Below are positions 9,301 through 62,040 of a stretch of DNA of 64,000 nucleotides, in pieces. Under the pieces are notes generated by a model. It was not told the origin of the DNA. It saw nothing but the letters and a program-made list of their open reading frames with translations, and did no database searches. The number at the start of each line of letters is the position of its first letter. Positions within the stretch are counted from its first letter, which is position 1. Source of the stretch: Lachnospiraceae bacterium. Its GTDB lineage: Bacteria > Bacteroidota > Bacteroidia > Bacteroidales > Bacteroidaceae. A program made the position numbers and the translations under genes. The stretch lies in assembly GCA_963659505.1 (NCBI GenBank), contig CAVKUV010000002.1, forward strand, positions 25,427 to 89,426. The letters run 5' to 3'.

Positions 9301-10913
9301 CGAAGAACGGCAATGGGCAGACTTCTATCAGCAGCGTCAACCACATCGGCTCGACCACGATCAACGCTGGTGTGCTTAGCGTCAATACGCTGGCCAACAA
9401 CAGTGGTCAGGACAATGGCGCGTTGGGTGGTGTGTCGTCTGCCATCGTCATCGACAAGAACGCCACGCTGAAGATTACTGCCAATGTAACCAGCGACCAG
9501 ACCATAAAGGTTGGCAAGGACAGTGCCGTAATCAATGTGGCATCGGGCGTCACCTTCACGCAGAACTCGGGCATCGGTGCCGTTGACACCAAGAACGCCG
9601 TGCTGACAAAGAGCGGTGACGGAACGTTTAAGCTTGGCGCCGGACACAAACTTACCGAACTGTTGCTCGACAACGGCACCGTGAACGCCGTGGAGTCGAG
9701 TGGGGTGGTGCAGCTGCCCGCTACGGTCACGGTGAGGAAGGGCGTGATATACGATCCCAACAGTGAAGGGTCATACACGACAAACAAGACAAACTTCGTG
9801 GTGCCGGCTCTCTGCAACGCCTCTGTTTACTGCGACCCGCGCTGCGACTACACCGGAACGCTTACCGGCAGTGGCACGTTCGTGATATATGCCGCTGGCG
9901 TGCGCAACTACTTCAAGGGCGACTGGAGCCAGTTTGAGGGAACTCTGATACCTGGTCTGCAAAAGCGCGGCACATACGACCCGCAGTTCCTCTTCTCCAA
10001 CAGTAAGGGCTTGGGCAAGTGTACTCTGCAACTCAACGAGGGCGTGGAGTTCAAGAACGAGGGCAACAATGTCGAGCTTGGCGCAGTCACGGGCAAGGGT
10101 ACGTTGTCTGGCACAGGCTCGTATATCCTTGGTGGCAACAATGCCGACATGATATTCACCACTCCCTGCAACTCCAACATCATCAAGCGTGGCTCTGGCA
10201 AGCTCGACATCAGGGCTTTGGGCGTCGTGGCGGGAAGCATCACAGTGGAGGATGGCTCGTTGGCCAACTATATGCTTTCATACAAGGAGAAGCTCAACGG
10301 CACTTATTCGGTGACGATGAAGAACGAGTCGAAGTTCCTTGGCAGCAGCTATGTCAACAGCTTCTTCCTCAAGGACAACTCGCGACTTGAACTTATCAAG
10401 GCTACCACAGCTGCCACACCGGCCACATTCAAGACCGACGGCATGTTCCAGGCTGCGTCTGGCTCTACGGTGCTGTTCAAGATCAACTCGGCTTCGTCTT
10501 ACTCCAAGCTTGAGATTGGCGGCTATCTCATCTTGCCACAAATAGAGGTGGTGCTTGGCGACAACTACAGTCCCAAGGTGGGCGACAGTTTCACGCTATG
10601 GACGGCCAACAAGATGACTACCTCCGATGTCACTTGTGTGCTTCCCGAACTGCCCAGCGGCCTCTATTGGGATGCCACAGCCCTCAATGGCACGAGCGGC
10701 GTGCTCACAATCGTTGACAGTCCCACGGGTATCAATGGCACTACGACATCTTCTGCCCACGACTATGAGGTGTACAACGTCAGCGGCATGCTCCTTGGCA
10801 CGGTACACTGCACCAAGGCTAACGTGCGCAAGGCTGTGCGTGGCATGGGCGTAGCCTCTGGCACCTACATCCTGCGTGGTGCTTCCACCGAAATTAAGGT
10901 GGTGGTTAGGTAA
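6393..10913 (+). CDS. Secreted rhamnogalacturonan lyase (PL11, YesW-like) with autotransporter-associated beta-strand repeats and a T9SS-like C-terminus
   Basis: Signal peptide; YNIYRDG, DVDGDGEVE, ARGIYTR, GQGYHN, GHGDAQH, DILGDWREE, YNQPPH PL11 motifs; then KxGxGxL repeats; ends YNVSGM..GTYIL..IKVVVR. Confidence 0.9.
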   Translation: MKKQLLLGLLGIASAGSMFAQRPTDALGRDLVAVYTANNTVYCSWRIPAEEYYDVKYNIYRDGVKLNDTPLATSNYTDKSGSLTSQYSVEAIVRGTAQAKSKAVTPWTKNYLEVKMDHGSLTSTYVPNDACCADVDGDGEVEILLKFDNNSDATNGYKPEGYNGEYAIIEVYKLNGKKLWWIDLGPNMADFQNNENNIVAFDWDRDGKAEAVLRAADGTVIHMADGTTKVIGDQTKNYRPSGGASGQWFIHDGAEYLLYLNGETGEPYQIMDYPLKRLEAGETNLEKAWGDGYGHRSTKHFFGAPFLDGKHASIFLARGIYTRHKMIALDVDPATHQLTERWRWNNNTPGSAWYGQGYHNFGIADVDMDGRDEIVYGSMVIDDNGKGLSTSGLGHGDAQHCGDFDPYTWGLEIFACNEDRPMNNYRDATTSKIYYRATGSSDDGRSIAGNFLDEYPGAQCRSAKDGNIIGGASHAALEGAPTSGMATNFRIYWDGDLLEETFNYVNGKNTEGGIYKGGRSSVMATLEGSMTNNDTKGTPCYQGDILGDWREEVIMRTASNDIRIYTTTYETPWRNYSLWHDHQYRNAMVWQMCGYNQPPHASYFLGKSEGITVAPPPLTLTGRTVVEGGGSIGSDLNGEHVLLADQGDVEVSVAQGASPYIFTDNAPSWTQGHDNNDNITTETFTHTLTGGAFTGSMRLVKQGEGVLQLPNVVETYTGSTDVWNGTLRFDGTLQQSRLWLNRHTTLETNGGTFAKGIQADYNATIKIGADDAAGTLTTDSLLLGFGSRVVFDLFSDGTAADKVKANVLKIEKKNWKNGPRYDAPIFKFVSHAADGESKLAEGKYLLCEAPTLDGDVANVTIEGLSAQKGVLSYEDGKLYITVSNFEPTEVTWQGNESGIWDIDGASNFKEDKSGAAAAFVPGDSVVFDDNADVTDITVQGNVAPASITFNNNVKAYTISGDSIAGNPTLTKNGNGQTSISSVNHIGSTTINAGVLSVNTLANNSGQDNGALGGVSSAIVIDKNATLKITANVTSDQTIKVGKDSAVINVASGVTFTQNSGIGAVDTKNAVLTKSGDGTFKLGAGHKLTELLLDNGTVNAVESSGVVQLPATVTVRKGVIYDPNSEGSYTTNKTNFVVPALCNASVYCDPRCDYTGTLTGSGTFVIYAAGVRNYFKGDWSQFEGTLIPGLQKRGTYDPQFLFSNSKGLGKCTLQLNEGVEFKNEGNNVELGAVTGKGTLSGTGSYILGGNNADMIFTTPCNSNIIKRGSGKLDIRALGVVAGSITVEDGSLANYMLSYKEKLNGTYSVTMKNESKFLGSSYVNSFFLKDNSRLELIKATTAATPATFKTDGMFQAASGSTVLFKINSASSYSKLEIGGYLILPQIEVVLGDNYSPKVGDSFTLWTANKMTTSDVTCVLPELPSGLYWDATALNGTSGVLTIVDSPTGINGTTTSSAHDYEVYNVSGMLLGTVHCTKANVRKAVRGMGVASGTYILRGASTEIKVVVR

Positions 10914-42733: not shown

Positions 42734-43135
42734 CTAACGGAAAGTCGCGGCACTTAGTTCCTTTGCTATGTTCGCTATACACGCCGAAACTCGGCTGTAT
42801 GTTTTTTCCCCTGCGTTCTTCACCCCACTTGTATACTGTCGCATCAGCGATGGGTTAATTCCAGCGCGCTTGGCAATGTCGCTGACGTTGAGGAAGGAAA
42901 AATACTCAAAGAACGACTGCAAGTCGTATTTGTATTCAAATTCCACATCGTAGACCTTTCCACCATGCTCCAGCACGTCTTTCCTCGATTCCTCCAGGCA
43001 CAACATCAAATCGGCCTTAGCCTCTGACACTGTATTACCAGCGCCATTCAGACCGCTGTCGAAGACGTCTTTCTCGGTGTGGCACCAAAAAGATCCATCC
43101 TCTGCTTGCGAAATTGTCACCAATACTTTCTTCAT
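42734..43135 (-). CDS. hicB: HicB-family antitoxin with C-terminal HTH
   Basis: N-terminal beta strands plus GAGNTVSEAK; C-terminal LNVSDIAKRAGINPSLMRQY; downstream of hicA. Confidence 0.85.
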   Translation of the reverse strand: MKKVLVTISQAEDGSFWCHTEKDVFDSGLNGAGNTVSEAKADLMLCLEESRKDVLEHGGKVYDVEFEYKYDLQSFFEYFSFLNVSDIAKRAGINPSLMRQYTSGVKNAGEKTYSRVSACIANIAKELSAATFR

Positions 43136-43221
43136 ATCTTATACCCTATTTGTGTCTTGAAATAAAGAGTCCGCTTTACACCACTACATTTCCGCACTCT
43201 ATATTTGAAAGTGGTCGGGGA

Positions 43222-43404
43222 TTACTCCCCAACCAACTTTTTCAATATCTTCAGCGCAAGTCCTTTCTTGACTTCGCCTGAGTGTCGGGGTACCCATTCG
43301 GCTTTTCCCGTTGTGGGGTTAGACCATTTGTCGTGCCTCCCTCCGTGTTGAACCATGACGCACCCGGCGTCTTTCAAAGCCCTTAGTAATTCGGAAGTTT
43401 TCAT
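43222..43404 (-). CDS. hicA: HicA-family mRNA interferase toxin
   Basis: 60 aa, basic; GGRHD (catalytic His), VPRH, GLALKILK. Confidence 0.9.
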   Translation of the reverse strand: MKTSELLRALKDAGCVMVQHGGRHDKWSNPTTGKAEWVPRHSGEVKKGLALKILKKLVGE

Positions 43405-43496: not shown

Positions 43497-43885
43497 TTTG
43501 CCCATAATCCGAATAAATGTCTTACTTTTGCATTGCACTATGCTTGCAGAAAGCCCGCAAGGGTATTATGCGGGTGGGTGTGTTTTTATGGAAAGAGCGT
43601 TTATCTGACGCTCATTCTTTGCGTGTCCTAACTTCGCAACTTAAGACCAAATCGCAAAAGAATGAGACAATGATGGATGCTCACGGTAGGTATATTGTAT
43701 GCCCTGCCGTGAGTTGTCGTATATGCACCTCGCCGACATTTGGTGGGGTGCGTTAGCGGCTGCCCACGCATGGGAATGATATATGCCATGCGTGGGCTTT
43801 CTGCATTGTCCGTCTCTGCGATTTGAGGCAATGCGAAGGCCTGGACACGTGGGATGGGCAAAGGCGAATCCCACGCTTTGTTTTT
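43497..43885 (+). promoter_or_regulatory. Putative BREX promoter and long structured 5' leader with terminator-like hairpin
   Basis: TACTTTTG 43523-43530; hairpins 43554-43574, 43680-43713, 43725-43751, 43762-43797; cgtgggat/atcccacg + T-run at 43848-43885. Confidence 0.6.
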
Positions 43886-43966
43886 ATAAAGACATCAATA
43901 CTTTTCGCGTAAAAAAATCGCCGGATATTGGGGTTCTATCCGCATTTGGATGAGAGCCTAAAAAAT

Positions 43967-46471
43967 ATGTACAAGATAACATGGGACAAAGAAACTGGCG
44001 GGGTGCAGTTGCACTCGCGCATTGTTGACGGCACGCTTGGCGTTTCTCCACGTCCTGTGTTTTTCGAGGAGTTGAACCTTTTGGGGCTTGACGCTCTTGG
44101 CTGGACTTATCCTCATGCTGAAGGTCCCATCATGTGGGCAGTAAACAAGCAGTATTGGTATCGTGGGCAGCACCTCTTCGACGCCAAGGGAGCCAACATC
44201 TACACCAAGCCCACGCTGGAGATGCAGCCTGGCGTGGAGCCGATGGCGTTGCAGCCTGTCGATGTGGAGGCGATGCTCCGGCGCACGTCCGACCTGATGT
44301 TTGTGCTTGAGAACGAGGCCATCGAGTTTATCCACGACACCTATCTTGCGTATGCCAAGGTTAACAAGACATACGCCAAGGCCGACGCCAACAAGCTCGA
44401 CTTCGAGGCGATGGCAGAACGGGTGGAGAAGAAGAGCAAGCAGAAGATGGCGGTGGTGAAGCAAGACTGCGACTCGTTTGACATCATGCCGCTCTCCGCT
44501 GCCGAAAAGGAGGGCAAGCGCGTGCTCCTCTCCACCAAAATAGACCGTTTCATAGCCAGCTTCTCTGGCGGCAAAGACTCGCAGGTGGTGCTCGACCTTT
44601 GCACCCGTGCCATTCCGCCAACCGATTTCGAGGTGATATATAGCGACACGGGCTATGAGTTGCCTCCTTCGCTCACGCTCTATAAAGAGGTGGAGCGTCA
44701 CTACAAGGAGAGATTCCCCACTCTAAACTTCCTCATGGCTCGCAACCACGAGTCTGTGCTCAACTATTGGGACAAAATCGGCACGCCAAGCGACAACCAT
44801 AGATGGTGCTGCTCGGTGATGAAGACAGCTCCGCTGTATAGAATGCTTAAAGTTGAAGGGAATAAGCAAGCTCATGTGTTGGCTTTTGATGGTGTAAGAG
44901 CGGAAGAGTCTGCCAAGAGAGAGAACTATCAAAGAATAGGCAAAGGCAAACACACTTACGTTTACAACGCGCATCCAATTATCGCATGGAACGCAGTGGA
45001 GATTTTCTTATATTTATTGGAATGGCGACTTCCAATCAATCCTGCTTATCGTGCAGGAAAGGCAAGAGTGGGATGTCTTATTTGTCCGTTTTCCTCAACA
45101 TGGGACGATATGGTCATTCGCCAAAATTATCCGAATGATTTGAAGCCTTTTGTTGACCGTCTCAAAAGGTACTCGTCTCAAGTGAAAATCCACAATTTCG
45201 AAGCTTATCTTGCTGAAAGGAAATGGAAACTGAAACCTCTTGGCGAAAGAGGGTTGGTCATTCCAACGGTAAACTTCAAAACGGAAATCTCGTCATTGAA
45301 TTTTGTTGCTGAGATGAAGGATGCCAAACATTCTTTGATGAAATGGTTGCCAGCTGTTTGTCCTTTTACCGTTAAGGATTCAATTAGCGGATATGAGGGA
45401 GAGTTGAACTACAAGAAGTCCGTATATCCTTTTTTCATAGAGCAGGTAGATGGAAAAACTGTTTTTACAGTCAAAGGAAAACTACCAAATGACTTGGTGT
45501 TTTTATTGAGGCGGTTGATTTACAAAACAGCATATTGTGTACAATGTGAGGTTTGCGAGGTTGAATGCCCAACAGGGGCGTTGTCCATTGTGCCTGAAGT
45601 AAAAATAGATAAAACGAAATGCATACATTGTCATAAGTGCTTTAACACACATGACCGTGGATGTGTTGCAGCAGATTGCATACGTATGATTACAGATTCA
45701 GAAAAGAAATTAAATACGAAAGTCCAAGGCTACAAGAAGTTCGGACTTCGTGAGGAATGGATAGAAGAGTATTTCATCGATCCAGTTGATTTTTGGAAAG
45801 AGAATTCATTAGGCACAGCTCAAATAGATTCTTTAAAAGCATGGTTACGTGATGCGGAAATAACCGATGCCAAGAACAATATGACAGAGTTTGGGGCACT
45901 GATGAAAAGAGTGTATGATGAGAATCCTTTGTTGTTTTGGGAAATCACTTTCGTAAATCTTTCTTATAACTCTTACATCGTAAATTGGTTTTGTAACAAC
46001 ATATCAACAAACCAGGTCTATAATGCAAAGATGATGAAAGAAGAAATATCTAATCAAGGTTTTACGGGTTCTTTGGCTACCATAGGAAATGCTGCTATTG
46101 CTTTCACGGATATGGTAAAGAAGACGCCCGTAGGTGAAGATTTCTTTCAAGGAGTCAACATGGGCAAGGAAGGCTTGCAACGAAATGAATATGAAGATTT
46201 GAGCATCGAAGCAGTGGCCTATTCCATATACCGTTTGGCGAAGGAACATGAAATAACAATGCTCCGTGTATCAGACCTGTATAAACCAGAAGAAGAACAT
46301 GGCGTGTATAAAGAATTTCTTGTATCCAAGCAGTCCCTCATGAAAAGGTTACGTACAATAAGTGCAAGTAACAATCGTGTTCTTGTTGCCGAATTGAACA
46401 TGGGACTCGACCATATAACTCTTCGTGATGACTTGACACCAGCAAAAGTTCTTGAAGAAATGATAAAATGA
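43967..46471 (+). CDS. brxP: BREX type 4 BrxP-like protein: PAPS-reductase (DndC/SspD-like) + 4Fe-4S ferredoxin + DUF4007-like C-terminal domain
   Basis: PP-loop SFSGGKDS, DTGYE, WCCSVMK, RAEES, RVGCLICP; CxxCxxCxxxCP and CxxCxxC ferredoxin motifs; FGLREEW-type C-terminal domain; context brxC-pglZ-brxL. Confidence 0.85.
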   Translation: MYKITWDKETGGVQLHSRIVDGTLGVSPRPVFFEELNLLGLDALGWTYPHAEGPIMWAVNKQYWYRGQHLFDAKGANIYTKPTLEMQPGVEPMALQPVDVEAMLRRTSDLMFVLENEAIEFIHDTYLAYAKVNKTYAKADANKLDFEAMAERVEKKSKQKMAVVKQDCDSFDIMPLSAAEKEGKRVLLSTKIDRFIASFSGGKDSQVVLDLCTRAIPPTDFEVIYSDTGYELPPSLTLYKEVERHYKERFPTLNFLMARNHESVLNYWDKIGTPSDNHRWCCSVMKTAPLYRMLKVEGNKQAHVLAFDGVRAEESAKRENYQRIGKGKHTYVYNAHPIIAWNAVEIFLYLLEWRLPINPAYRAGKARVGCLICPFSSTWDDMVIRQNYPNDLKPFVDRLKRYSSQVKIHNFEAYLAERKWKLKPLGERGLVIPTVNFKTEISSLNFVAEMKDAKHSLMKWLPAVCPFTVKDSISGYEGELNYKKSVYPFFIEQVDGKTVFTVKGKLPNDLVFLLRRLIYKTAYCVQCEVCEVECPTGALSIVPEVKIDKTKCIHCHKCFNTHDRGCVAADCIRMITDSEKKLNTKVQGYKKFGLREEWIEEYFIDPVDFWKENSLGTAQIDSLKAWLRDAEITDAKNNMTEFGALMKRVYDENPLLFWEITFVNLSYNSYIVNWFCNNISTNQVYNAKMMKEEISNQGFTGSLATIGNAAIAFTDMVKKTPVGEDFFQGVNMGKEGLQRNEYEDLSIEAVAYSIYRLAKEHEITMLRVSDLYKPEEEHGVYKEFLVSKQSLMKRLRTISASNNRVLVAELNMGLDHITLRDDLTPAKVLEEMIK

Positions 46472-46935
46472 AATCCGCCGCTCTTCTCTTAACGTATAAG
46501 GACATGGTGCTTTCGCTCAATTTGGGTACTAAGAAAGGGGGCGTTTCCGTATCCAAGCCTCTTTACATATTGGCCATAATTGATGCGATAGAGTGGGAAG
46601 CTCTTATTGAAAACAAAATAGAGTTTATGGATACCTTTATCCGTAAGAGATTTGGACAGTTGTATGAACAAGTGAACAACAACCGGAAAGGTTATGAAAG
46701 CTCATTCTTTGTCCGTCCCTATTTTCATCTTAGTAGTTCTTCCTTTTATCATCTGATATGGAAACCAGAGACAGAGAAACCGAATTGTTCAAGTACCCCT
46801 TCTTCAAAGTTTCTCCGCGAGCACTTGCTCTATGCGAAGCTTGACGATGAGTTGTGGGAGTTGTTGCAAGATGCAGAGAGTAGAGAATATTTAAAAAGAA
46901 GTATAATCAAACGATACTTGAGACCCCAAGAATAA
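46468..46935 (+). CDS. Stand-alone protein resembling the SBD (phosphorothioate-binding) N-terminal domain of PT-dependent HNH nucleases, without HNH
   Basis: KPLYILAIID..ENKI..PYFHLSSSSFYHL..YAKLDDELWELL..R..L pattern; ATGA overlap with brxP; no CxxC/HNH motif. Confidence 0.6.
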   Translation: MKSAALLLTYKDMVLSLNLGTKKGGVSVSKPLYILAIIDAIEWEALIENKIEFMDTFIRKRFGQLYEQVNNNRKGYESSFFVRPYFHLSSSSFYHLIWKPETEKPNCSSTPSSKFLREHLLYAKLDDELWELLQDAESREYLKRSIIKRYLRPQE

Positions 46936-46952
46936 CATAACACATACCAAAT

Positions 46953-49900
46953 ATGGCTACTAAATATGACGACATAATAAAGTTGCGTGGAGGCAAGGCC
47001 GCCTACGACATGGCTGAGGAGAAGCAGGGGGAATGGGTTTCGTTCATTCCCAACGAGCAGTTTAACTCAGTGCTACGCACGGTGATAAAGAGCGTGCGCG
47101 GCAACGACATCGACAACCACAAGAGCTTCTGGATAAACGGAACCTACGGCACAGGCAAGAGCCATGCCGTGGCCGTGATAAGCCACTTGCTTGGCGACGA
47201 AGTGAAGGACATACGCGAATGGGTGGACTATGAATACAAGGATAGCAAGTTTGACACCATCCGCCAAGCCATATACTCGCTGCGCGAAAGCAAGCGGTTG
47301 CTCACGGTGAAGGTGTATGGCCTTGGGTCGATGACCCATCCCGGCGACCTTGCCCTTGTGCTCCAGAAGGCGGTGACCGAGACACTGCGCAAGCACAAGA
47401 TAGAGATAGCCGTGCCTACCGATTATGAAAACTACATAGAGCAAATAGGCCAGAACCCCGAGATATGGAACCACCTGATAGACACCCACACGGCACTGTC
47501 GTCGGTGGTGACCGACAGCAAAGACCTGGCCGCGCACCTGAAGACGGGCGACCTTGGCCTGTTTCACCGCGTGGCCGACACACTGCGCGAGGCGCAGCTC
47601 GACATCCGACTGAACAACGGCAACATTAAACAATGGCTCACCGAGGTGCAAGACCGGCTGACGGAGCTTGGCACCTACAACGGATTGCTCATAGTGTGGG
47701 ACGAGTTTACCGACGTGATGACCGACGCCATCGGCGTGCCGGTGTTGAAGCAGCTGCAAGAGGTGGCGCAGAAGTTCATGAACGAGGAGAGCAACTCCTA
47801 CATGTTCCTAATCTCGCACCCCTCGGCATTCAACGGCATCGACACAGAGCAGCTGAAGCAGACCGACGGCCGCTACCACCGCATGAAGTATAACATGGAG
47901 TCGGTGTCGGCATTCAAGATAATGTCGCGCAAGTTTGAAATAATCGACGAAGCGCGTCACCAGCACATGCGTGAGCTGTTTTATGCGGCCAACCCGCAGC
48001 TGCTCGACATATTCACCGCCACCAGCAACGACCCACTGTCAACGCGCAACGACCTGTTCAACCTCTTTCCGCTGCATCCCGGCACGGCCAACCTCGCCAC
48101 CCACTATGCCACGGTGGTGGGCTCTTCGAGCCGAAGCGTGTTTGAATTCTTGGGGCAGAACGACTCCATACGCGAATTTCTCGACAGCGAGGAGCGGTAT
48201 CAAAACCGCGACACCATCACCGCCGACTACTTGTGGGACTATGTGCTGAAGGTGTTTCAGGACGACGTTACCAACTACGGCGCAGTGACCGAACGCTACA
48301 ACTCCTACAAGCTGCAGGTGGGCAACGAGGGCGAAGCCTATCTTGCGGTGTTCAAGGGCATACTGCTGCTCAACGCCTTCAACAACGTGTCGGGCGACAA
48401 CAACAACGGACTCGTGACACCGTCGGAAGACAACATTCACGCCCTGTTTGCCGGAACGCACTTTGACGACGAGGTGGACGAAGTGTTGCGGTGGTTCAAC
48501 GAGCAAGGCATCATCCAGCGTGCGCCGGGCGGACTCTACTCGGTGCAGTTCTCGGCCTTGCCATCGGGCGAGATAGAGGAGAAGAAGACCGAGATGCGCA
48601 ATGTGCAGTATCGCTACACAAGCCAGATACTCAACTTCTCCGACGCGGCCAGCACAGCCTTCGAGAAGAAGATGATGCAGAAGGTGATACGCCCCTACGG
48701 CTTCAAGTTCTTCTCCGACCAGCAGAACGAGGCCGTGCTGCGCAGCCAGATAAAGAGTGCGCGGAGAGACACCAAGACGAGCGCGCTATTCTTCGCCCTG
48801 CTCATGGCGCGCAACAACACCGAGCTTGCCACACTGCGGAGCTTTGCCGAGAGGTGTGCCGCCGACGAAGGCGACAAGGACTTGAAGAACATCGTCTACT
48901 TGGTGTTTGACGAGGTGCTTACCGATGCCAAGTATGAGCAGTTCATCGAATACCAGGCCAACTACGCCTGTGCCAGCAGCCACGGATTCATCGACCAGCA
49001 GAAGGTGCACCGCGACCATGCGGTGTCGATGGTGAAGGAGTGGATGGACAGCGTGCAGCGCGGCAACGCCACCGTGTACATCAACGGACATGAGAAGATG
49101 CCAATCTCGGTGAAGCACCTGTCGAGTGTAGTCAACAGCTCGATAGCGCCAGCCATATTTCCCTTTGGACCCGACGCTTGCGAACTGTTGAGGCAGAAGA
49201 CAGCCTCTACATTCTGGCGCCAGCAGAACTCAAAGGAGATAGTGCGCACATTCATATTCGCCACATCGAAGGAGGAGATAACAAACATAACCGCGCAGAT
49301 GCGCCCAGTGCAGTATCTGGTGCAGGAGTGCCTTGACGACAACATGGAGTGGAGGGGCTACGTGCCTGATGGCCACCCGTTCAAGGTGGTGTATGACAAG
49401 GTGCAGAGCATCATAAAGCATGCCGACAAGAGCATGCCGTTCAACTTCGGCGACAAGTTCTCCTTGCTGCAAGAGCCACCCTATGGTCTTTACGGCAGTT
49501 TCGCCTCAATGGCGATGATGGCCTTTGCCATTAGGCCGTGGGCAAACAAGATATTCGACATGCAGGGAAAGCCGCGCGACAAGAACGCACTTATCGACGA
49601 CATAGTGTGGCTTTTCAAGGTGTGGGACGACAAGAAGTCGAACTCCAAGCTCAACTTCAAGTTCCAGACACCCGAAGAGGGCAAGCTTTGCAAGGAACTC
49701 ATATCGCTCTTCAAGCTCAACAGCAAGAACAACGCCTACTCCGACGTGTCGAGTCTGAAGGATGCACGCTATGCCATCACGGCGGAGTTTCTTGGCAAGA
49801 AGGGCTATCCGCTTTGGTCGGTGAAGTACGCCTCCGATGCGGCGTTTACCGGTCTGCCCATTCTCATCAGGGTGAACGATGCGGAGCGCAAGCTGATAGA

Positions 49901-50417
49901 CAACATCGTGACCATCTGCATGGAGCGCGAGCTGCGCAACCCGCCATTGGTGAAGGAGACAATCGACCTCATCTCGGAGCTGCGCATAGAGATGAGGAAC
50001 ATACTCAATGTGGATGCCGCCTTCTCCGATGGTTTCAAGAACTACTTGATGCAGCTTGAATTCGTCAACATACAAGAGAACGAGGTGGACGAGGTGAAGC
50101 ACTTCGTGGAGCAAAACTTACAATCGACGGTGGGCTATTGGACCGAGGAGGAAGTGGAGAAGAAGGCGTTGCAGTGGAAGTCGTCGAAGAATATGCGGCA
50201 GCAGCCTGTTGCGCCACCGACACCTCCAGTTGCGCCACCATCTGTAGTGGCGGAAAATGCTCCTGCCACACCAACAAGCCCCGACATCGTTGCGGAAAAG
50301 CTCAAGCGTGCCAAGGAGCGCATAGCCAGCATAGCCACCCTCGACGAGGCCATAGCGTTGCTCAACAAGCTTTGCGACGAAGGTGGGGAGTGGCTGTTTG
50401 ACAAGATAAACAGTTAG
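46953..50417 (+). CDS. brxC: BrxC/PglY-like P-loop ATPase
   Basis: Walker A GTYGTGKSH, Walker B LIVWDEF, FPLHP; 1154 aa; directly upstream of pglZ. Confidence 0.85.
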   Translation: MATKYDDIIKLRGGKAAYDMAEEKQGEWVSFIPNEQFNSVLRTVIKSVRGNDIDNHKSFWINGTYGTGKSHAVAVISHLLGDEVKDIREWVDYEYKDSKFDTIRQAIYSLRESKRLLTVKVYGLGSMTHPGDLALVLQKAVTETLRKHKIEIAVPTDYENYIEQIGQNPEIWNHLIDTHTALSSVVTDSKDLAAHLKTGDLGLFHRVADTLREAQLDIRLNNGNIKQWLTEVQDRLTELGTYNGLLIVWDEFTDVMTDAIGVPVLKQLQEVAQKFMNEESNSYMFLISHPSAFNGIDTEQLKQTDGRYHRMKYNMESVSAFKIMSRKFEIIDEARHQHMRELFYAANPQLLDIFTATSNDPLSTRNDLFNLFPLHPGTANLATHYATVVGSSSRSVFEFLGQNDSIREFLDSEERYQNRDTITADYLWDYVLKVFQDDVTNYGAVTERYNSYKLQVGNEGEAYLAVFKGILLLNAFNNVSGDNNNGLVTPSEDNIHALFAGTHFDDEVDEVLRWFNEQGIIQRAPGGLYSVQFSALPSGEIEEKKTEMRNVQYRYTSQILNFSDAASTAFEKKMMQKVIRPYGFKFFSDQQNEAVLRSQIKSARRDTKTSALFFALLMARNNTELATLRSFAERCAADEGDKDLKNIVYLVFDEVLTDAKYEQFIEYQANYACASSHGFIDQQKVHRDHAVSMVKEWMDSVQRGNATVYINGHEKMPISVKHLSSVVNSSIAPAIFPFGPDACELLRQKTASTFWRQQNSKEIVRTFIFATSKEEITNITAQMRPVQYLVQECLDDNMEWRGYVPDGHPFKVVYDKVQSIIKHADKSMPFNFGDKFSLLQEPPYGLYGSFASMAMMAFAIRPWANKIFDMQGKPRDKNALIDDIVWLFKVWDDKKSNSKLNFKFQTPEEGKLCKELISLFKLNSKNNAYSDVSSLKDARYAITAEFLGKKGYPLWSVKYASDAAFTGLPILIRVNDAERKLIDNIVTICMERELRNPPLVKETIDLISELRIEMRNILNVDAAFSDGFKNYLMQLEFVNIQENEVDEVKHFVEQNLQSTVGYWTEEEVEKKALQWKSSKNMRQQPVAPPTPPVAPPSVVAENAPATPTSPDIVAEKLKRAKERIASIATLDEAIALLNKLCDEGGEWLFDKINS

Positions 50418-50423
50418 CGGCCT

Positions 50424-52841
50424 ATGTATAAGGAGTTTGCTTCGTTGCACGACCTTTGTCAGGAGATGGAGGCCGACAAGAATTGGACGGGTGCGGAGAG
50501 TTCTCTTCGCAACCGCTACCCAATACGCTTTGTGCTGTTTGAAAACTTCGGTGACTTCGGCGAGTTCGTGCAAGTTTGCCAAGACCATGGGGTATATGTG
50601 CAAGGCATAGAGAATTGGATGGCCGACGGTCAGGACGACAAGCTGATTACCTATTCGCGTTTGGCTGACTTGTTTGAGCAATACATCAAGAGTTTGCCAG
50701 CTAACGATTTTGTCATTGCGCCATTCTCCGAGATAACCCGTTTCTACGAAAACACGCGCTATGCGGAGTTCGACTCGTTGCTGAAGACCATACGGCTCGT
50801 GCAGTCGCCAGAGGACTCGCAAAACCGCCACCAACGCATATACGTGCCTATAATAGGCATGCAGAGCAAAGTGGGGAAGTTTAAGGACGACCCCAACATA
50901 CACATTTGGGAATACCATTCGGAGGCGGAGTGCCAAAACTACAGACTGGTGCTTACTTCGGGAACGACCTACGGCGTGCACGGACTTGAGGCTGGGTTCA
51001 GCGTCTGCGAAAATCTGCGTGAGTGGATCTCGCTATGGAAGAAAGCCGACGCACAGGTGAAGCGGCAGATAATATGCTCGTCGAAGTGCATATTCGCCAA
51101 CGCAGGCAATGCGCAGCCCGACAATGCCTTCGACTATACCGTGTGCCACAACGCCTTTGAGTTTCTCACGAAAGGTCTTGGTCTCGATTTCGGCACGTTG
51201 GCCGCCAAGGCCGACGACATGGCTTATTGGGAGGAATTGGCCGCAAACATCGACATCGACGACTTCGACTTTGAAGCGTTTGTCAACAAACGGTTTAACA
51301 CGGCAGACCTGTGCGACGCAAACTCGTTTGTGCAGACGTGGTTTGACTATAATGACGGCTTTTCGCGCTGGTTGCTGAAGAGCCATTTCCTTTGGCAAGC
51401 CACCACGCCAACATATCTTACACGTGTGCTGGAATGTTGCCACACGCAAAGCACGTCAGACCTGTTCTCGCTGTTGGCCACCCAAATATTCGACGAACAG
51501 TATGATGACGCAAGCCTCGTTATGCGCCGGGCTTTGCTGGATGAGGCCAAGAGGCAAAATGTGCAAATCACCCATATGGCCGAGCAGAAGGTGAAGGCCA
51601 AACTGATGGCCATGGCCGCTGACCCTGAGCGTGGACACTACTACGCCATGAAATACATGACTGCGCTAACGCGGTCGGAACAATGCCTGATGGTGGAGTG
51701 GGTAGGACAGGGAAAGGTGAGCGTGAGGGACATTCAAGTCCTTATGCCCTCGCTTTATGCCTATCTCTCGCCGCTGGGTGTACAACTGGATGACTCGACA
51801 GCATGGGTAAGCGAATACTTCGGTGAATATGCGCAGTCGAAGATTGCCAACATGGCGAGTGAACGTCTGTCGCTCCTGCTGAAGGAGCACAACGCTTCGC
51901 AAGCGGCCTTTGAGTCGTGGCGCGATGGCTTCAAGACGGTGAAGACGATTTTGCACAACCGACAGGACATCGATGTGTACTATTGGATTGACGGACTTGG
52001 CGTCGACTGGATACCATTCATTGCAAAGGTGATAGAGAAGCATCGGGTTGACGGTGTATATCTGAATGAGGTGTATATGGCGGCGGCAGAACTGCCCACG
52101 GTGACCTCTGTGAACAAGGCTAAGCTGGAGGAACTGACCGACGAAAGACTCGAAAAGATAGGCGACATCGACAAGTATGCACACACGCAAAAGAGCTATC
52201 CGGATTATGTTATCGACGAGCTTCGACTTGTGGAGGAGTCAATCGGCAAAATCCTGTCGCAATACAACGGCAAGAAGATAGCCTTCGTTTCCGACCATGG
52301 CATCAGTTATATGGCGCAGTATGGCTGCGGACTGAACCTCGCCGGCATCGAGTCGAACCATGCAGGACGGTGTGCCGTGTGGACAAAAGGGGCGGCTCCG
52401 GCATATGGCAACTATATGGTGTTGGCCGACGGAAAAACATTGTGCGCACTCAACCACAACTCGCTTTCGGCAAAGACACCAACAGGGCAGGGCGCGCATG
52501 GTGGCGCGACTCCCGAAGAGGTGCTGGTGCCTGTCATTATTGTGTCAAGCCAGAAAAACGCCAACGTGTATGCGGCCAAGCTGCTGACCACAGGGCTAAT
52601 GGCATCCAACCCCATTGTGCGATACAGCATAAAGGGACTGAGCAGCATCGACACGCCGAAGGTGAACTACAACGGGGTGGATTATGCGCTCCACAAGACG
52701 CAAGGCGACATATATGAAAGCGAGAGACTGAACCTTGTGGGTACGGCCACAAGACTGACGGTCGTGATTGGCGACTTCAAGCAGACTGACCCAATAGACA
52801 TCAACATGGGTGTTCAGGAAGACGACTTGTTTGGATTTTAG
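50424..52841 (+). CDS. pglZ: BREX PglZ alkaline-phosphatase-fold protein
   Basis: WIDGLG, AELPTVT, DKYAH, VSDHG, HGGATPEEVLVP metal-binding motifs. Confidence 0.92.
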   Translation: MYKEFASLHDLCQEMEADKNWTGAESSLRNRYPIRFVLFENFGDFGEFVQVCQDHGVYVQGIENWMADGQDDKLITYSRLADLFEQYIKSLPANDFVIAPFSEITRFYENTRYAEFDSLLKTIRLVQSPEDSQNRHQRIYVPIIGMQSKVGKFKDDPNIHIWEYHSEAECQNYRLVLTSGTTYGVHGLEAGFSVCENLREWISLWKKADAQVKRQIICSSKCIFANAGNAQPDNAFDYTVCHNAFEFLTKGLGLDFGTLAAKADDMAYWEELAANIDIDDFDFEAFVNKRFNTADLCDANSFVQTWFDYNDGFSRWLLKSHFLWQATTPTYLTRVLECCHTQSTSDLFSLLATQIFDEQYDDASLVMRRALLDEAKRQNVQITHMAEQKVKAKLMAMAADPERGHYYAMKYMTALTRSEQCLMVEWVGQGKVSVRDIQVLMPSLYAYLSPLGVQLDDSTAWVSEYFGEYAQSKIANMASERLSLLLKEHNASQAAFESWRDGFKTVKTILHNRQDIDVYYWIDGLGVDWIPFIAKVIEKHRVDGVYLNEVYMAAAELPTVTSVNKAKLEELTDERLEKIGDIDKYAHTQKSYPDYVIDELRLVEESIGKILSQYNGKKIAFVSDHGISYMAQYGCGLNLAGIESNHAGRCAVWTKGAAPAYGNYMVLADGKTLCALNHNSLSAKTPTGQGAHGGATPEEVLVPVIIVSSQKNANVYAAKLLTTGLMASNPIVRYSIKGLSSIDTPKVNYNGVDYALHKTQGDIYESERLNLVGTATRLTVVIGDFKQTDPIDINMGVQEDDLFGF

Positions 52842-52859: not shown

Positions 52860-54290
52860 ATGCAGACATCAACAGTACAGAAAATCAGGGCGCAATTTGC
52901 ATCCATGGCCATATACAAAGACCCGGCATCGACAAACAGTTTGTTTGCAGGACGCAACTTGCCGTCGTTTGTAAAAGACTTTATCCTTAAGCGTTACATC
53001 AACGAGGATGGATCGGTAAACCGTTCGGGACTGACGGGATTTCTCGACATGGTGATACCGCAGCGGCAGACGGAGGTGAAAGACCGTTTGGCTTCGGGCG
53101 AGGAGCTGACCCTGCTCACCAGGTTCATCATATACATTGACTTGGTGAAGGGCGTGCGCCGCTTCGGCATTCCTGATCTTGGCATCAAAATAAACGAAGG
53201 ACTGATACCAGAGTATGTGTACAAGAACCATCAGGGCGAACTGGTTGACGGCGAGAAGTGGGGCATCATAAAACTGTCGGTTCTTCCCGACGAGAATGGC
53301 AAGAGAAACCATGTGGAGATGGTTGACTACAAGCCATTCAAGCCATACCGCTCTGTGGACATTGACTATCTGCGAGGAGCGAGGGCGGCATTTTCAATCG
53401 AGGAATGGATAGACGTGCTGTTGTCGTCTATGGAATATGAGGCTGACGGCTTTGAGACGCTGACGCAGAAAGTGGAGTTTCTTACCCGGTTGCTCATTTT
53501 TGTGGAGCCACGGCTCAATGTGATAGAGTTGGCTCCGAAAGGAACGGGCAAGTCGTTTGTGTTTGGCAACCTCTCAAAGTATGGGTGGCTCGTAAGTGGA
53601 GGAAAGGTGACGCGTGCAAAGTTGTTCTACGACAAAACCAAGCAACAGAATGGCATCATCAAGAACCATGACTTCACGGCATTCGACGAGATACAGACCA
53701 TCATTTTCCAAGAGCCGGCAGAGATACAGGCGGCCTTGAAGTCGTATTTGGAGAGCGGCAAGACCACCATCGACAATAATGAGTTCAGCTCAGAATGCGG
53801 ATTGATGATTATGGGAAACATTCCTCTCAACGAGCAGCGTCGCCCATCAAACATCCGTTATTTTGACTCGTTGCCGCAGTCGTTTCGCGAATCGGCATTG
53901 CTCGACCGTTTCCACTGTTTCATAGAGGGGTGGAACTTGCCGCGCGTAAACAAGGGCATAATCTACAGAGGATGGACGCTCAATGTGGAGTATTTCTCGG
54001 AGATACTCCATTCGCTACGCACGCAGAATGTCTATGGACTGCTGTTTGACGAACTTGTGGCTTGCGACAAGAATGCCGACACGCGTGATTTCAATGCGGT
54101 GAAGCGCATCGCAGTGGCCTACATGAAACTGTTTTTCCCCCATTGGACGCACGCAAGCGATGTCAACCGTGCTGATTTCGAGACTTACTGTCTGCAGCCT
54201 GCCGTCTACCGCCGTGGCATCATTAAGGAGCAGTGCCATTACATCGATGTGGAGTTCAAGACAGCAATGCCCCAATTCTGGTTGCGTTAG
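52860..54290 (+). CDS. brxL: BrxL-like AAA+/MCM-type ATPase (no C-terminal Lon protease domain)
   Basis: EWIDVLLSS, NVIELAPKGTGKS, FDEIQ, LKSYLESG, ALLDRFH, GW; 476 aa. Confidence 0.88.
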   Translation: MQTSTVQKIRAQFASMAIYKDPASTNSLFAGRNLPSFVKDFILKRYINEDGSVNRSGLTGFLDMVIPQRQTEVKDRLASGEELTLLTRFIIYIDLVKGVRRFGIPDLGIKINEGLIPEYVYKNHQGELVDGEKWGIIKLSVLPDENGKRNHVEMVDYKPFKPYRSVDIDYLRGARAAFSIEEWIDVLLSSMEYEADGFETLTQKVEFLTRLLIFVEPRLNVIELAPKGTGKSFVFGNLSKYGWLVSGGKVTRAKLFYDKTKQQNGIIKNHDFTAFDEIQTIIFQEPAEIQAALKSYLESGKTTIDNNEFSSECGLMIMGNIPLNEQRRPSNIRYFDSLPQSFRESALLDRFHCFIEGWNLPRVNKGIIYRGWTLNVEYFSEILHSLRTQNVYGLLFDELVACDKNADTRDFNAVKRIAVAYMKLFFPHWTHASDVNRADFETYCLQPAVYRRGIIKEQCHYIDVEFKTAMPQFWLR

Positions 54291-60002: not shown

Positions 60003-60452
60003 TTAGCAGCCGCAAGGGGTTGATTGTCCGTTAGCCACGCGTTGCAGCGTGGCTTTGCACCGCTCGCCTTCATAGAATGTTTCCAACACCTCTTCGAATA
60101 TGTCGTGAGGCGACACGATGTCGAACAGAGTCATGCACGACTTCACCTTCATTGCGTCCAGACTGCCGAATATGCGCTCGGCATAATCGCCGCTATGGTC
60201 CAGCAACGCCTCGGTCGCCTCTTTCAGTCTATCGTGCAGAATGTTGTTCTCCCAATAGGCTTTTGCTTCAAGAAGCGAACCGATGCTGTATTTCTGCGAC
60301 ATCCAGCTATGCCCCAAACCTTTTATCTGAGGAAAGATATACCATATCCAATGCGAGGTTTTCCTGCCTTTCCTGATTTCCTGCAAGGCTATGTCGTAAT
60401 GGTTGGACTCATTCTGTATTTCGATGAATCTTTCTACGTTTGTTGTTTCCAT
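60003..60452 (-). CDS. DUF1810 family protein
   Basis: RFIEIQ..Y..AL.EI..GRK.SHWIWYIFPQ, IFGSLDAMK..SCMTLF; start moved to ATG 60452. Confidence 0.88.
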   Translation of the reverse strand: METTNVERFIEIQNESNHYDIALQEIRKGRKTSHWIWYIFPQIKGLGHSWMSQKYSIGSLLEAKAYWENNILHDRLKEATEALLDHSGDYAERIFGSLDAMKVKSCMTLFDIVSPHDIFEEVLETFYEGERCKATLQRVANGQSTPCGC

Positions 60453-60457
60453 GTCAT

Positions 60458-61291
60458 TTAGTGATGGTGAGACCAGGTAACCCAGCAATATTCGTCAAAA
60501 TCTTCGATGATGTTAAGCATCCACTGGGGTAGTTTGCGCTTGGCGTTGTCCACAAGCTGTTGTGGCATCTCGCCGTAATGCGCGTATGCCATAGGTCCGG
60601 CGATGGCCGCAAGTGTGTCGGCGTCGCCGCCAAGGGCGATGGCCAGTTTCAGGCAGTCGGCGTAGTCGTGGCTTTCGAGAAAGCAAATCAGCGAGGCCGG
60701 AACCGTCAACTGGCAAGTGGAGTCGAAATAATATCCGGGCTTAATCCCTTCATACGTTTTCGCACCCCATTCGGGATAATACGTCTCAAGCACGTTCGTG
60801 CGTATGAAGTCCTTGCTCTCGCCTAGCATGGCATAGTGTATGGCAAGAGCCGTTGCCACCGCTCCCTTTATGCCTTCGGGGTGGTTGTGCGTGGGCAATG
60901 CCGTCTTTGTGGCCAAGTCGATGCACTCCTCCTTGCTTCCCGCCATGAACCCAGCCGCCGAGCAGCGCATGGCACTGCCGTTGCCAAACGAATTGTAGGC
61001 CGGTCTGACTTCCCGTGAGATGAGCCACCGCGCATAGCGCCACCCATAGCCTCGGTGGAAGTCTTCACGCCCTCTGCTCCACAGTGTCGTGGCCATGTCC
61101 CTGTGGTACAGCAGGGCTTCGGCGCAAGCGAACGTACATACCGTGTCGTCGGTGTAGTCGTTGCCGGGGCGGAGAAGGTCTATGGCGTCGTAGTCCTTCG
61201 TGCGGTTGTAGAACTCGTATGGCATTCCTGCAATGTCGCCTATGGCTTCACTCAACAGCAGGTTCTTAAATGTAGCATAACTTTTTCCCAT
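60458..61291 (-). CDS. ADP-ribosylglycohydrolase (DraG/ARH family)
   Basis: AIGDIAG, YTDDT, SFGNGSAMR, THNHP, GGDADT. Confidence 0.93.
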   Translation of the reverse strand: MGKSYATFKNLLLSEAIGDIAGMPYEFYNRTKDYDAIDLLRPGNDYTDDTVCTFACAEALLYHRDMATTLWSRGREDFHRGYGWRYARWLISREVRPAYNSFGNGSAMRCSAAGFMAGSKEECIDLATKTALPTHNHPEGIKGAVATALAIHYAMLGESKDFIRTNVLETYYPEWGAKTYEGIKPGYYFDSTCQLTVPASLICFLESHDYADCLKLAIALGGDADTLAAIAGPMAYAHYGEMPQQLVDNAKRKLPQWMLNIIEDFDEYCWVTWSHHH

Positions 61292-61320
61292 ATATTCATC
61301 TGTTTATTAGGTTAGCGTCT

Positions 61321-61352
61321 ATCATCTCCCACTAAAATCATCTCCCACTAAA
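61321..61352. repeat. 16-bp tandem duplication at the nrtR-like stop codon
   Basis: atcatctcccactaaa x2. Confidence 0.85.
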
Positions 61353-62040
61353 ACTCCAGTCGGAATCCCTTCTGCTTCATCTCCTCATACATGTCGTGGT
61401 TGAACGTGTAGAGGTAGGCGTCCTTCTTGGCCGGTTGCTTCACCGTCTCGTCCAGTTGGTTGAGCAGTCCCAGGTGCAGCATCTTGTTGTAGAAGTTGCG
61501 GCGGTCGAACTTCACGTTCAGTATGGCCTCATACAGTTGCTGGAGAGCCTTCATCGTGAACTTCTCCGGTAGCAGCTCAAACCCTATCGGTTCAAAGTGT
61601 ATCTGCTTGCGCAGCGCGCGTTCCGCCATGCGCAGTATCTGGTCGTGGTCGAAGGCCAGCGACGGCACCTCGTCGAGCGAGAACCACTGTGCCTTGGCGG
61701 CATCGTCGCCGCCCACGACATCCTGCAGGCGCACCAAGGCATAGTAGGCGATGGTGATGACGCGCTCGCGTGGGTCGCGGTCGGGAGCGGTGAAGGCATG
61801 AAACTGGCGGATGTATGCGCCTGTCAGTCCCGTCTCCTCGCGCAGTTCGCGCAATGCGCCCTCCTCGCCCGACTCGTCCATTTTGAGGAAGCCGCCGGGA
61901 AACGCCCATTTTCCCTTGAATGGTTCTATGCCTCGCTCTATGAGCAGCACTTTCAGTTTGTTTCCGTCAAACCCGAATATCACGCAGTCTGTCGTGACGC
62001 TCGGATGCGGATATTTGTAGCGATATTCTTGACTTTCCAT
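61348..62040 (-). CDS. NrtR-family regulator (Nudix + winged helix)
   Basis: WAFPGGF..GALRELREETGL Nudix box, RDPRER, LAFDH, LLPEKFT..LYEAIL..DRRNF wHTH. Confidence 0.92.
   Translation of the reverse strand: MESQEYRYKYPHPSVTTDCVIFGFDGNKLKVLLIERGIEPFKGKWAFPGGFLKMDESGEEGALRELREETGLTGAYIRQFHAFTAPDRDPRERVITIAYYALVRLQDVVGGDDAAKAQWFSLDEVPSLAFDHDQILRMAERALRKQIHFEPIGFELLPEKFTMKALQQLYEAILNVKFDRRNFYNKMLHLGLLNQLDETVKQPAKKDAYLYTFNHDMYEEMKQKGFRLEF

Follow-up and report, generated by a model that had tools for sequence, protein, structure and literature searches.

A brxP-mcrA-brxC-brxZ-brxL operon is already in print for Bacteroides salyersiae DSM 18765 (PMC12914056). Phosphorothioate (PT) synthesis was shown there for the BrxP orthologue, with mcrA co-expressed alongside brxP and brxC in a PT-positive strain, and heterologous BrxC gave no complementation. 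By analogy with ScoMcrA, the mcrA product was called a PT-dependent restriction enzyme; neither 'SBD', for sulfur-binding domain, nor 'sulfur-binding' occurs in the main text. A 457-taxon survey of bacteriophage exclusion (BREX) systems makes no mention of SBD or McrA in its main text (PMC12839542), and SBDs in Dnd loci are noted only as nuclease-fused in the part of PMC10853773 that could be seen. A survey of SBDs removed sequences shorter than 200 amino acids as probably truncated (PMC10602919), a filter that would leave out the family described here.

The gene considered here, at 46468–46935 (+), lies in a 64,000-nucleotide stretch of contig CAVKUV010000002.1 (positions 25,427 to 89,426; assembly GCA_963659505.1), referred to below as the window. 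It encodes a stand-alone, nuclease-free SBD of 155 amino acids between brxP and brxC of an operon that, by gene content, is BREX type 4. The B. salyersiae mcrA (HMPREF1532_02792; 9992–10423 of locus L022) is its orthologue, with 143 residues, 37% identity and the same position, and the published deletion primer matches the junction between brxP and the SBD gene exactly. The first-pass annotation had regarded the arrangement as undescribed; given the primer match, the same operon and gene have been published for B. salyersiae. Neither exchange of a brxP 3' cassette nor a stand-alone SBD family was found described in the literature searched, which included the available part of review PMC12707154. 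Relative to that literature, the nuclease-free SBD family and the proposed writer–reader cassette appear new and the operon arrangement is already known. We propose, with a probability of roughly 0.45, that the SBD may be a motif-matched reader of self PT, acting on the defence side and co-exchanged with the variable domain of BrxP.

The four SBD motifs are all present (K30-P31-x3-L35, P84-x2-H87-L88, Y94-H95-L96 and Y122-A-K-L-D-D-E-L129), with Ser as residue 29. A phmmer search against the Protein Data Bank matched residues 7–148 to SBDHga (8H0L) at E 3.4e-13. The AlphaFold model of the protein, a winged helix-turn-helix fold with a pLDDT of 92.3, superimposed best on the same structure (TM 0.80; Z 19.3, root-mean-square deviation 2.3, 143 aligned residues). 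The SBDs of ScoMcrA and SprMcrA came next at Z 14.2–14.4, and unrelated winged helices followed from Z 9.0 down. As modelled, its fold and two of the three best-conserved pocket positions identify the protein as an SBD. Neither HNH nor any other Pfam domain was detected in its 155 residues, and Pfam and PADLOC include no family for it. NCBIfam NF045808 aligned over profile positions 6–123 of 284 only, at E 0.0023 and 17 bits against a cut-off of 180. Since the SBD takes up the whole protein, there is no room for a nuclease. Type IV PT-dependent restriction endonucleases carry a fused HNH or PD-(D/E)XK nuclease and cannot share a cell with a PT writer. The present protein has no such fusion, its gene sits inside a writer operon, and it is not one of these enzymes. 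What had been read from the sequence at first sight, namely a 155-residue gene coupled to brxP by ATGA with the SBD pattern and no HNH, was confirmed from the open reading frame and Pfam; its assignment to the SBD fold was upheld by the structure comparison, and its location inside a PT-writer operon by the neighbouring BrxP, BrxC, PglZ and BrxL.

The sulfur pocket of SBDHga consists of H25, K26, L75, P76 and H79 (PMC10602919), which map by alignment to S29, K30, R83, P84 and H87. Ser29-Lys30 is encoded at 46552–46557 (+) and corresponds to H25-K26 of SBDHga and H116-R117 of ScoMcrA; Arg83-Pro84-x-x-His87, at 46714–46728 (+), corresponds to L75-P76-x-x-H79. For comparison across loci, one sequence with a missing N-terminus (L095) was dropped and 74 SBD rows were dereplicated to 50. 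K30 and P84 are invariant in all 50 loci and in 63/63 homologues, and H87 is kept in 39 of the 50. In ScoMcrA, mutation of R117 and P165, the equivalents of K30 and P84, abolished PT binding, and Y164, the equivalent of residue 83, was expected by the authors to vary with the PT motif (PMC6224610). The pocket wall is built from side-chain methylene and methyl carbons (PMC10602919, PMC6224610), which Ser and Ala retain. Loop L3 changes the sequence range of characterised SBDs (PMC7470945). On a rough estimate, PT-preferring binding is probable and, if the SBD binds, its match to the motif of its own writer appears quite likely.

Near-length homologues number 149, mostly of 148–155 residues, and a profile search returned 1,352 clusters (50% identity); among the 150 best, most are of stand-alone length. 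Among species genomes, the SBD gene lies between brxP and brxC in 24/29 loci, and three more show the same arrangement cut by contig ends. The remaining two are cyanobacterial and have longer SBD proteins beside a dndC-like gene, with HNH confirmed by Pfam in one. A further set was anchored on brxC, which avoids selecting for the SBD, and 80 metagenome loci were kept of 457 confirmed matches. The SBD gene stands just upstream of brxC in 60 of these 80, while brxP abuts brxC in 20; dereplication left it in 39 of 55 loci. Across 401 genomes of the order, a BREX-4 PglZ exceeded the cut-off in four, this one included, and one of the three others has the SBD.

The ratio of nonsynonymous to synonymous substitution rates (dN/dS) is 0.05–0.26 in eight groups of close relatives, three of 84 copies are broken, and intact copies range from 128 to 164 residues. 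The SBD family is under purifying selection, and these values, together with its presence in part of the loci, indicate an accessory gene that is selected but optional. The survey of the interval between brxP and brxC that had been suggested at the outset thus found the gene to be recurrent, but not constant. A decaying, functionless remnant of an SBD-HNH protein, the alternative raised with the original observation, would fit the frequent loss of the gene and the three broken copies. Nevertheless, it is refuted by the selection data and the 149 near-length homologues and keeps next to no probability; the gene is present in Bacteroidales as well as on Clostridia- and methanogen-labelled contigs, and HNH was found in only one of 28 longer relatives scanned.

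The gene lies in an exchangeable segment. GC content is 37–40% over 45000–47000 and 50–58% in the rest of the operon. At third codon positions it drops to 0.38 for the 3' half of brxP and to 0.44 for the SBD gene, against 0.71 and 0.79 on the flanks, and the averages of related loci dip likewise. BrxP residues 401–530 (45128–45517 (+), numbered from a TTG at 43928) are hypervariable, with a mean pairwise identity of 32% compared with 77% for the PAPS-reductase domain. At 45% linkage this domain falls into 14 classes, and the present locus belongs to class 1. In the pair L002 and L006, BrxC is 97% identical, whereas the variable domain, DUF4007 and the SBD are 18%, 43% and 58% identical, respectively.

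Breakpoints were fitted for 17 pairs, of which 15 were usable (L015/L019 and L092/L013 failed and were dropped); the pairs come from five backbones and are not independent. The left breakpoint falls at brxP codons 285–330 in 13 of the 15, and the right one lies inside the SBD gene in every pair, at codons 74–122 and in 11 of them at codons 102–110. Flanks are mostly 95–100% identical and cassettes 50–57%. The SBD gene is a mosaic, as the right breakpoints lie within it. Its N-half shows 45% identity when loci share the BrxP class but not the backbone and 31% when they share the backbone but not the class, and its C-half shows the reverse (60% and 69%). An AT-rich cassette comprising the 3' part of brxP and the SBD gene is swapped between operons that are otherwise 95–100% identical. 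In the window it covers about 44820–46800 (+), or brxP codons ~290–834 and SBD codons 1–~110, the limits being approximate and taken from related loci.

Within this cassette, residue 83 of the SBD tracks the class of the accompanying BrxP. It is Arg in 16/16 class-1 loci spread over five brxC backbones, Val, Leu or Met in 14/14 class-0 loci and Lys in 7/7 loci of classes 3 and 4. Loop L3 is class-specific, being long and basic in class 1, and classes 0, 1 and 2 each have a characteristic N-half signature across backbones. The nearest neighbour in another backbone is of the same BrxP class for 32 of 39 N-halves and 20 of 39 C-halves, against a chance value of 0.22. The columns that track class most strongly are F80, R83 and S29, not those closest to brxP. 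DNA-facing variable columns track class at 0.26 and other variable columns at 0.15 (permutation p 0.034; the DNA-facing set was picked from Hga contacts, and neither columns nor loci are independent). In a class swap between loci that lack the SBD gene, the crossover sits at the conserved 3' end of brxP (91–93% identity over the last 60 nucleotides), whereas seven of seven swaps that carry the gene show no crossover there (50–61% identity). Moreover, class-1 writers kept the gene in 14/14 dereplicated loci, compared with 25/41 for other classes (Fisher p 0.005, on loci that are not independent). Three of these points, the signal at F80, R83 and S29, the DNA-facing columns and the unused 3' crossover patch, favour matching between writer and SBD.

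In the mechanism that we propose, the BrxP variable domain would set the PT motif. The SBD, co-translated with BrxP, would hold the Rp sulfur with K30, P84 and H87 and with side-chain carbons of S29 and R83; its binding is predicted to be weaker than that of nuclease SBDs because His/Tyr has become Ser or Ala. Residue 83 and loop L3 would be tuned to the motif of the writer. On modified host sites, the SBD would then mark or cover self DNA for BrxC, PglZ and BrxL and improve the discrimination of self from non-self. Motif sites are modified only in part (17% of CCTC); the lack of PT at a motif is therefore not enough to betray foreign DNA, and a positive self signal would be useful. The downstream effect on defence is the weakest step of the proposal. 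The wider form of the proposal is tentative: BREX-4 may change its target motif by swapping a cassette of a writer specificity domain and a matched nuclease-free reader that relays the mark to defence.

Several observations weigh against a motif-matched reader, and they are taken up here with the alternatives on which they bear. To begin with, the BrxP variable domain is itself a candidate for the motif-specifying module, proposed from sequence comparison. The role of this extra alpha+beta domain was called unclear in the 457-taxon survey (PMC12839542). Class 3 (B. salyersiae, NpsCTC) is the only BrxP class anchored to a measured motif; among the matches listed, Supplementary Data 4 of PMC12914056 gives dinucleotides by isolate without sequences. 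A single-sequence fold of BrxP 1–598 reached a pLDDT of 35.7, too low for use, and a complex prediction of BrxP 401–847 with the SBD (score 0.00 against a mark of 0.32) gave no verdict on their pairing.

The pocket itself raises a second difficulty. In none of the 50 dereplicated loci does position 29 carry His or Tyr, the residue being Ser in 21 and Ala in 29, and the six SBD-HNH proteins of genome loci that Pfam confirmed have His or Tyr there. In ScoMcrA, H116I cut binding by 94% (PMC6224610), Tyr-to-Ala pocket mutants of Spr almost abolished it (PMC7470945), and Hga mutants at DNA-contacting residues, with H25A among those assayed, bound less (PMC10602919). Among 100 representatives of stand-alone length the position is Ala in 79, Ser in 11 and His in 10. 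Ser29 is a family trait that likely lowers PT affinity. The doubt raised by the first-pass annotation about a Ser before the Lys-Pro pair was real in that loss of His/Tyr weakens characterised SBDs, but the residue is not peculiar to this locus. The protein could instead be a sulfur-blind helper, a small binder of the unmodified motif or of BrxP that co-varies with the writer, and translational coupling to brxP (in 43/49 loci the SBD gene begins -4 to +3 nucleotides from the brxP stop) would suit such a role. The conservation of K30, P84 and H87, the wall carbons kept by Ser and Ala, and a PT level that does not change when the gene is removed make this unlikely.

Class tracking also falls with distance from the variable domain, from 38/39 for DUF4007 through the N-half to the C-half, as plain hitchhiking or linkage predicts. 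Seven of the 39 N-halves do not track class, the C-half was compatible with a class-1 clade in the approximately unbiased test (p 0.16), and in backbone C1 the L4 loop goes with the backbone. In addition, the SBD-less crossover control consists of two pairs that share one locus. On this evidence the SBD could be a motif-indifferent cap that protects PT sites from oxidation or from PT-dependent type IV nucleases and that co-segregates with class by hitchhiking. SBDHga, the closest structure, is sequence-promiscuous (PMC10602919), the 11 breakpoints at codons 102–110 lie beside a conserved segment, and the conserved 3' third of the SBD gene could serve as a crossover arm. We nevertheless consider a cap quite unlikely, as the strongest class signal is in the pocket and L3 columns and not in those nearest brxP. 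Resident type IV enzymes look rare in the hosts, which leaves little support for shielding from them: no NF045808 match exceeded the cut-off in 28 host genomes, many of them incomplete, a search of the own genome (88% complete) gave no HNH_2 match, and in the 401 genomes of the order five of the SBD matches proved to be SBD-HNH genes.

The gene is, moreover, absent from 16 of the 55 dereplicated anchored loci, and none of the properties measured changed when the orthologue was deleted. PT per million nucleotides was 388±6 in the B. salyersiae wild type, 425±103 without mcrA and 8 without brxC, and an mcrA deletion mutant was obtained, whereas a brxP deletion could not be (PMC12914056). The published deletion shows the SBD gene to be dispensable for PT synthesis and the mutant to be viable. 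Two roles that had been suggested for the gene, an essential restraint on BrxC, PglZ and BrxL and a guide needed for maintenance modification, are largely refuted for class 3 by these data. The failure to obtain a brxP deletion suggests autoimmunity without the writer, and the retention of the gene by all class-1 writers would agree with a restraint. Given the unchanged PT level, the viable strain and the 20 loci in which brxP abuts brxC, such a role is left with a very small probability. Pseudogene or remnant, restriction enzyme, essential restraint and requirement for PT synthesis were each rejected on selection, domain, locus and deletion data.

A last alternative is a sensor of foreign PT that would bind non-host motifs, recruit a nuclease in trans (e.g. 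PglZ), as a split type IV enzyme might, and avoid the host motif, so that it too would co-vary with the writer. SBDs usually serve restriction, SBD-HNH genes are found close to dnd clusters in fewer than 3.6% of cases (PMC7461809), and the B. salyersiae gene was treated as a restriction gene by Yuan et al. (PMC12914056). Avoidance, however, would let one writer go with many types of SBD, whereas classes 0, 1 and 2 keep their N-half signatures, and no nuclease gene travels with the SBD. A foreign-PT sensor is thus improbable.

The natural swaps point to the region to exchange and give paired alleles in near-identical backbones. Two questions on BREX-4, the choice of the PT motif and the use of partial PT marks to tell self DNA from foreign DNA, thereby become directly testable in a strain for which the knockout exists. 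If the proposal of a motif-matched reader holds, the SBD family would be a natural library of motif-specific readers of self PT and the BrxP variable domain the determinant of the motif, and fusions of Ala-type SBDs to sigma-70 may relay the PT mark to transcription. Small SBDs with differing motif preferences could serve PT mapping and detection. The published label is corrected, as the gene named mcrA encodes no nuclease, and a 200-residue filter would hide the family.

Other arrangements of SBD genes were seen among the relatives. Of the 28 longer relatives scanned, 12 are sigma-70 factors (regions 2 and 4) that end in an SBD, each with Ala at position 29 (P0198, P0208, P0215, P0220, P0229, P0234, P0235, P0240, P0251, P0253, P0255 and P0263). 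These are possible PT-reading sigma factors, for which no description was found in the literature searched. Further SBD fusions among the longer relatives involve MTaX1 (three, one with DpnI_C) and a ResIII helicase. A separate search for longer homologues, with a 339-column profile and restricted to 595–2000 residues, gave one kinase/NERD fusion and is uninformative on BrxP–SBD or BrxC–SBD fusions. Longer SBD genes stand directly beside dndC-like PAPS-reductase genes in L028, L029, L165 and L171; those of L028, L165 and L171, with HNH by Pfam, are by sequence nuclease-bearing readers adjoining PT writers.

A second stand-alone SBD of 178–187 residues, ~29% identical to the query, lies on the minus strand, divergent and upstream of brxP, in six loci (L001:133-669, L003:6376-6912, L007:6385-6948, L070, L071 and L105, the last without the internal SBD). 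It was not found in the present genome. The operon also occurs on contigs labelled methanogen, Clostridia, Acutalibacteraceae, Flexilinea and Oscillibacter (L023, L005, L011, L020 and L021); L021 is almost identical to Prevotella loci, and some labels may be binning errors. The one record of the phage collection that holds a BREX-4 operon is L144 (MT835963.1), an unverified 'bacteriophage' entry of 14.7 kb made up mostly of the operon, in which the SBD gene is present and brxC is split; it is probably bacterial DNA. Plasmid matches were 11 in number and weak, and nine are annotated as HNH endonuclease.

The BREX type 4 core in the window is complete, in order and in one operon. brxP (43967–46471 (+); 834 residues from its ATG) contains PAPS-reductase, variable alpha+beta, 4Fe-4S and DUF4007 regions, and its stop is overlapped by the SBD start codon as ATGA. 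brxC (46953–50417 (+); an ATPase of 1154 residues; PADLOC PDLC02490, 1053 bits) starts 17 nucleotides past the SBD stop. It is followed by a BREX-4 type pglZ (50424–52841 (+); 805 residues; NF033445, 774 bits against a cut-off of 140) and a short, type-4 form of brxL (52860–54290 (+); 476 residues), assigned by domain and profile matches. The brxP product appears to be an SspD-SspB-like PT writer, and PT modification of this genome is inferred from the 55% identity of its BrxP to that of B. salyersiae. No cysteine desulfurase was found among the open reading frames flanking the operon, a housekeeping copy not having been searched for; the enzyme is optional in BREX type 4 and lies in the operon in 56% of taxa (PMC12839542). 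A secreted-looking pyridoxal-dependent decarboxylase (PF00282; 55238–56464 (+)) just 3' of the operon has a best match other than cysteine desulfurase. A scan for sigma-70 promoters gave fewer sites than shuffled sequences.

Upstream of brxP, at 43530–43950 (+), lies a conserved non-coding leader of ~400 nucleotides with a long multi-stem structure. Compensatory changes support 26 of 89 pairs in 14 aligned loci, a number reached by none of 500 shuffles and far above slid controls, the structure having been derived from the alignment used for this covariation test. The leader has no Rfam match. Seven divergent copies occur elsewhere in the genome, three of them at contig ends, so the leader is not BREX-specific; two precede putative fimbrial-lipoprotein-like proteins and one a putative LytTR-like gene. 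A HicA toxin gene (Pfam E 6e-11) and a probable HicB partner, the latter labelled from position without a Pfam match, lie divergent from the operon at 42734–43404 (-). At 60003–62040 (-), genes for DUF1810, an ADP-ribosylglycohydrolase and an NrtR-type Nudix regulator stand in a row, probably an ADP-ribose or NAD stress module. Elsewhere in the genome, a second BREX locus of type-1 character, with a pglX fragment, pglZ and a long brxL, is found near a contig end (G000:C26, L177:7550-12959 (-)).

Compared with known systems, the SBD occupies the same position as the mcrA of B. salyersiae, which differs in belonging to class 3 and in its pocket, A-K-K-P-Y there and S-K-R-P-H here. With SBDHga (8H0L), ScoMcrA (5ZMO) and SprMcrA (7CC9/7CCD) it shares the fold, at Z 19.3, 14.4 and 14.2, and the pocket Lys and Pro, and His87 is as in SBDHga. 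Those SBDs form part of fusion proteins that destroy PT DNA with a PD-(D/E)XK or HNH nuclease, whereas the present one stands alone in a writer operon and has Ser in place of His/Tyr. The core genes are those of BREX type 4 (brxPCZL), to which the accessory SBD is added. SspE is a precedent for the reading of self PT within its own writer system (PMC9646914). It is, in contrast, a GTPase-nickase with another PT-sensing patch and itself the effector, while the SBD has no catalytic domain and is optional. None of the PT-stimulated NTPase and nickase domains of the SspE type is present in it, so the likeness extends to the proposed logic only. In Type I restriction–modification systems, the variable, AT-rich target-recognition module of HsdS is swapped through conserved flanks between near-identical operons. 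A change of motif by the present cassette would be hypothetical; its module differs from that of HsdS in covering the last part of the gene for a sulfur-inserting enzyme together with most of a second gene, that of the proposed reader.

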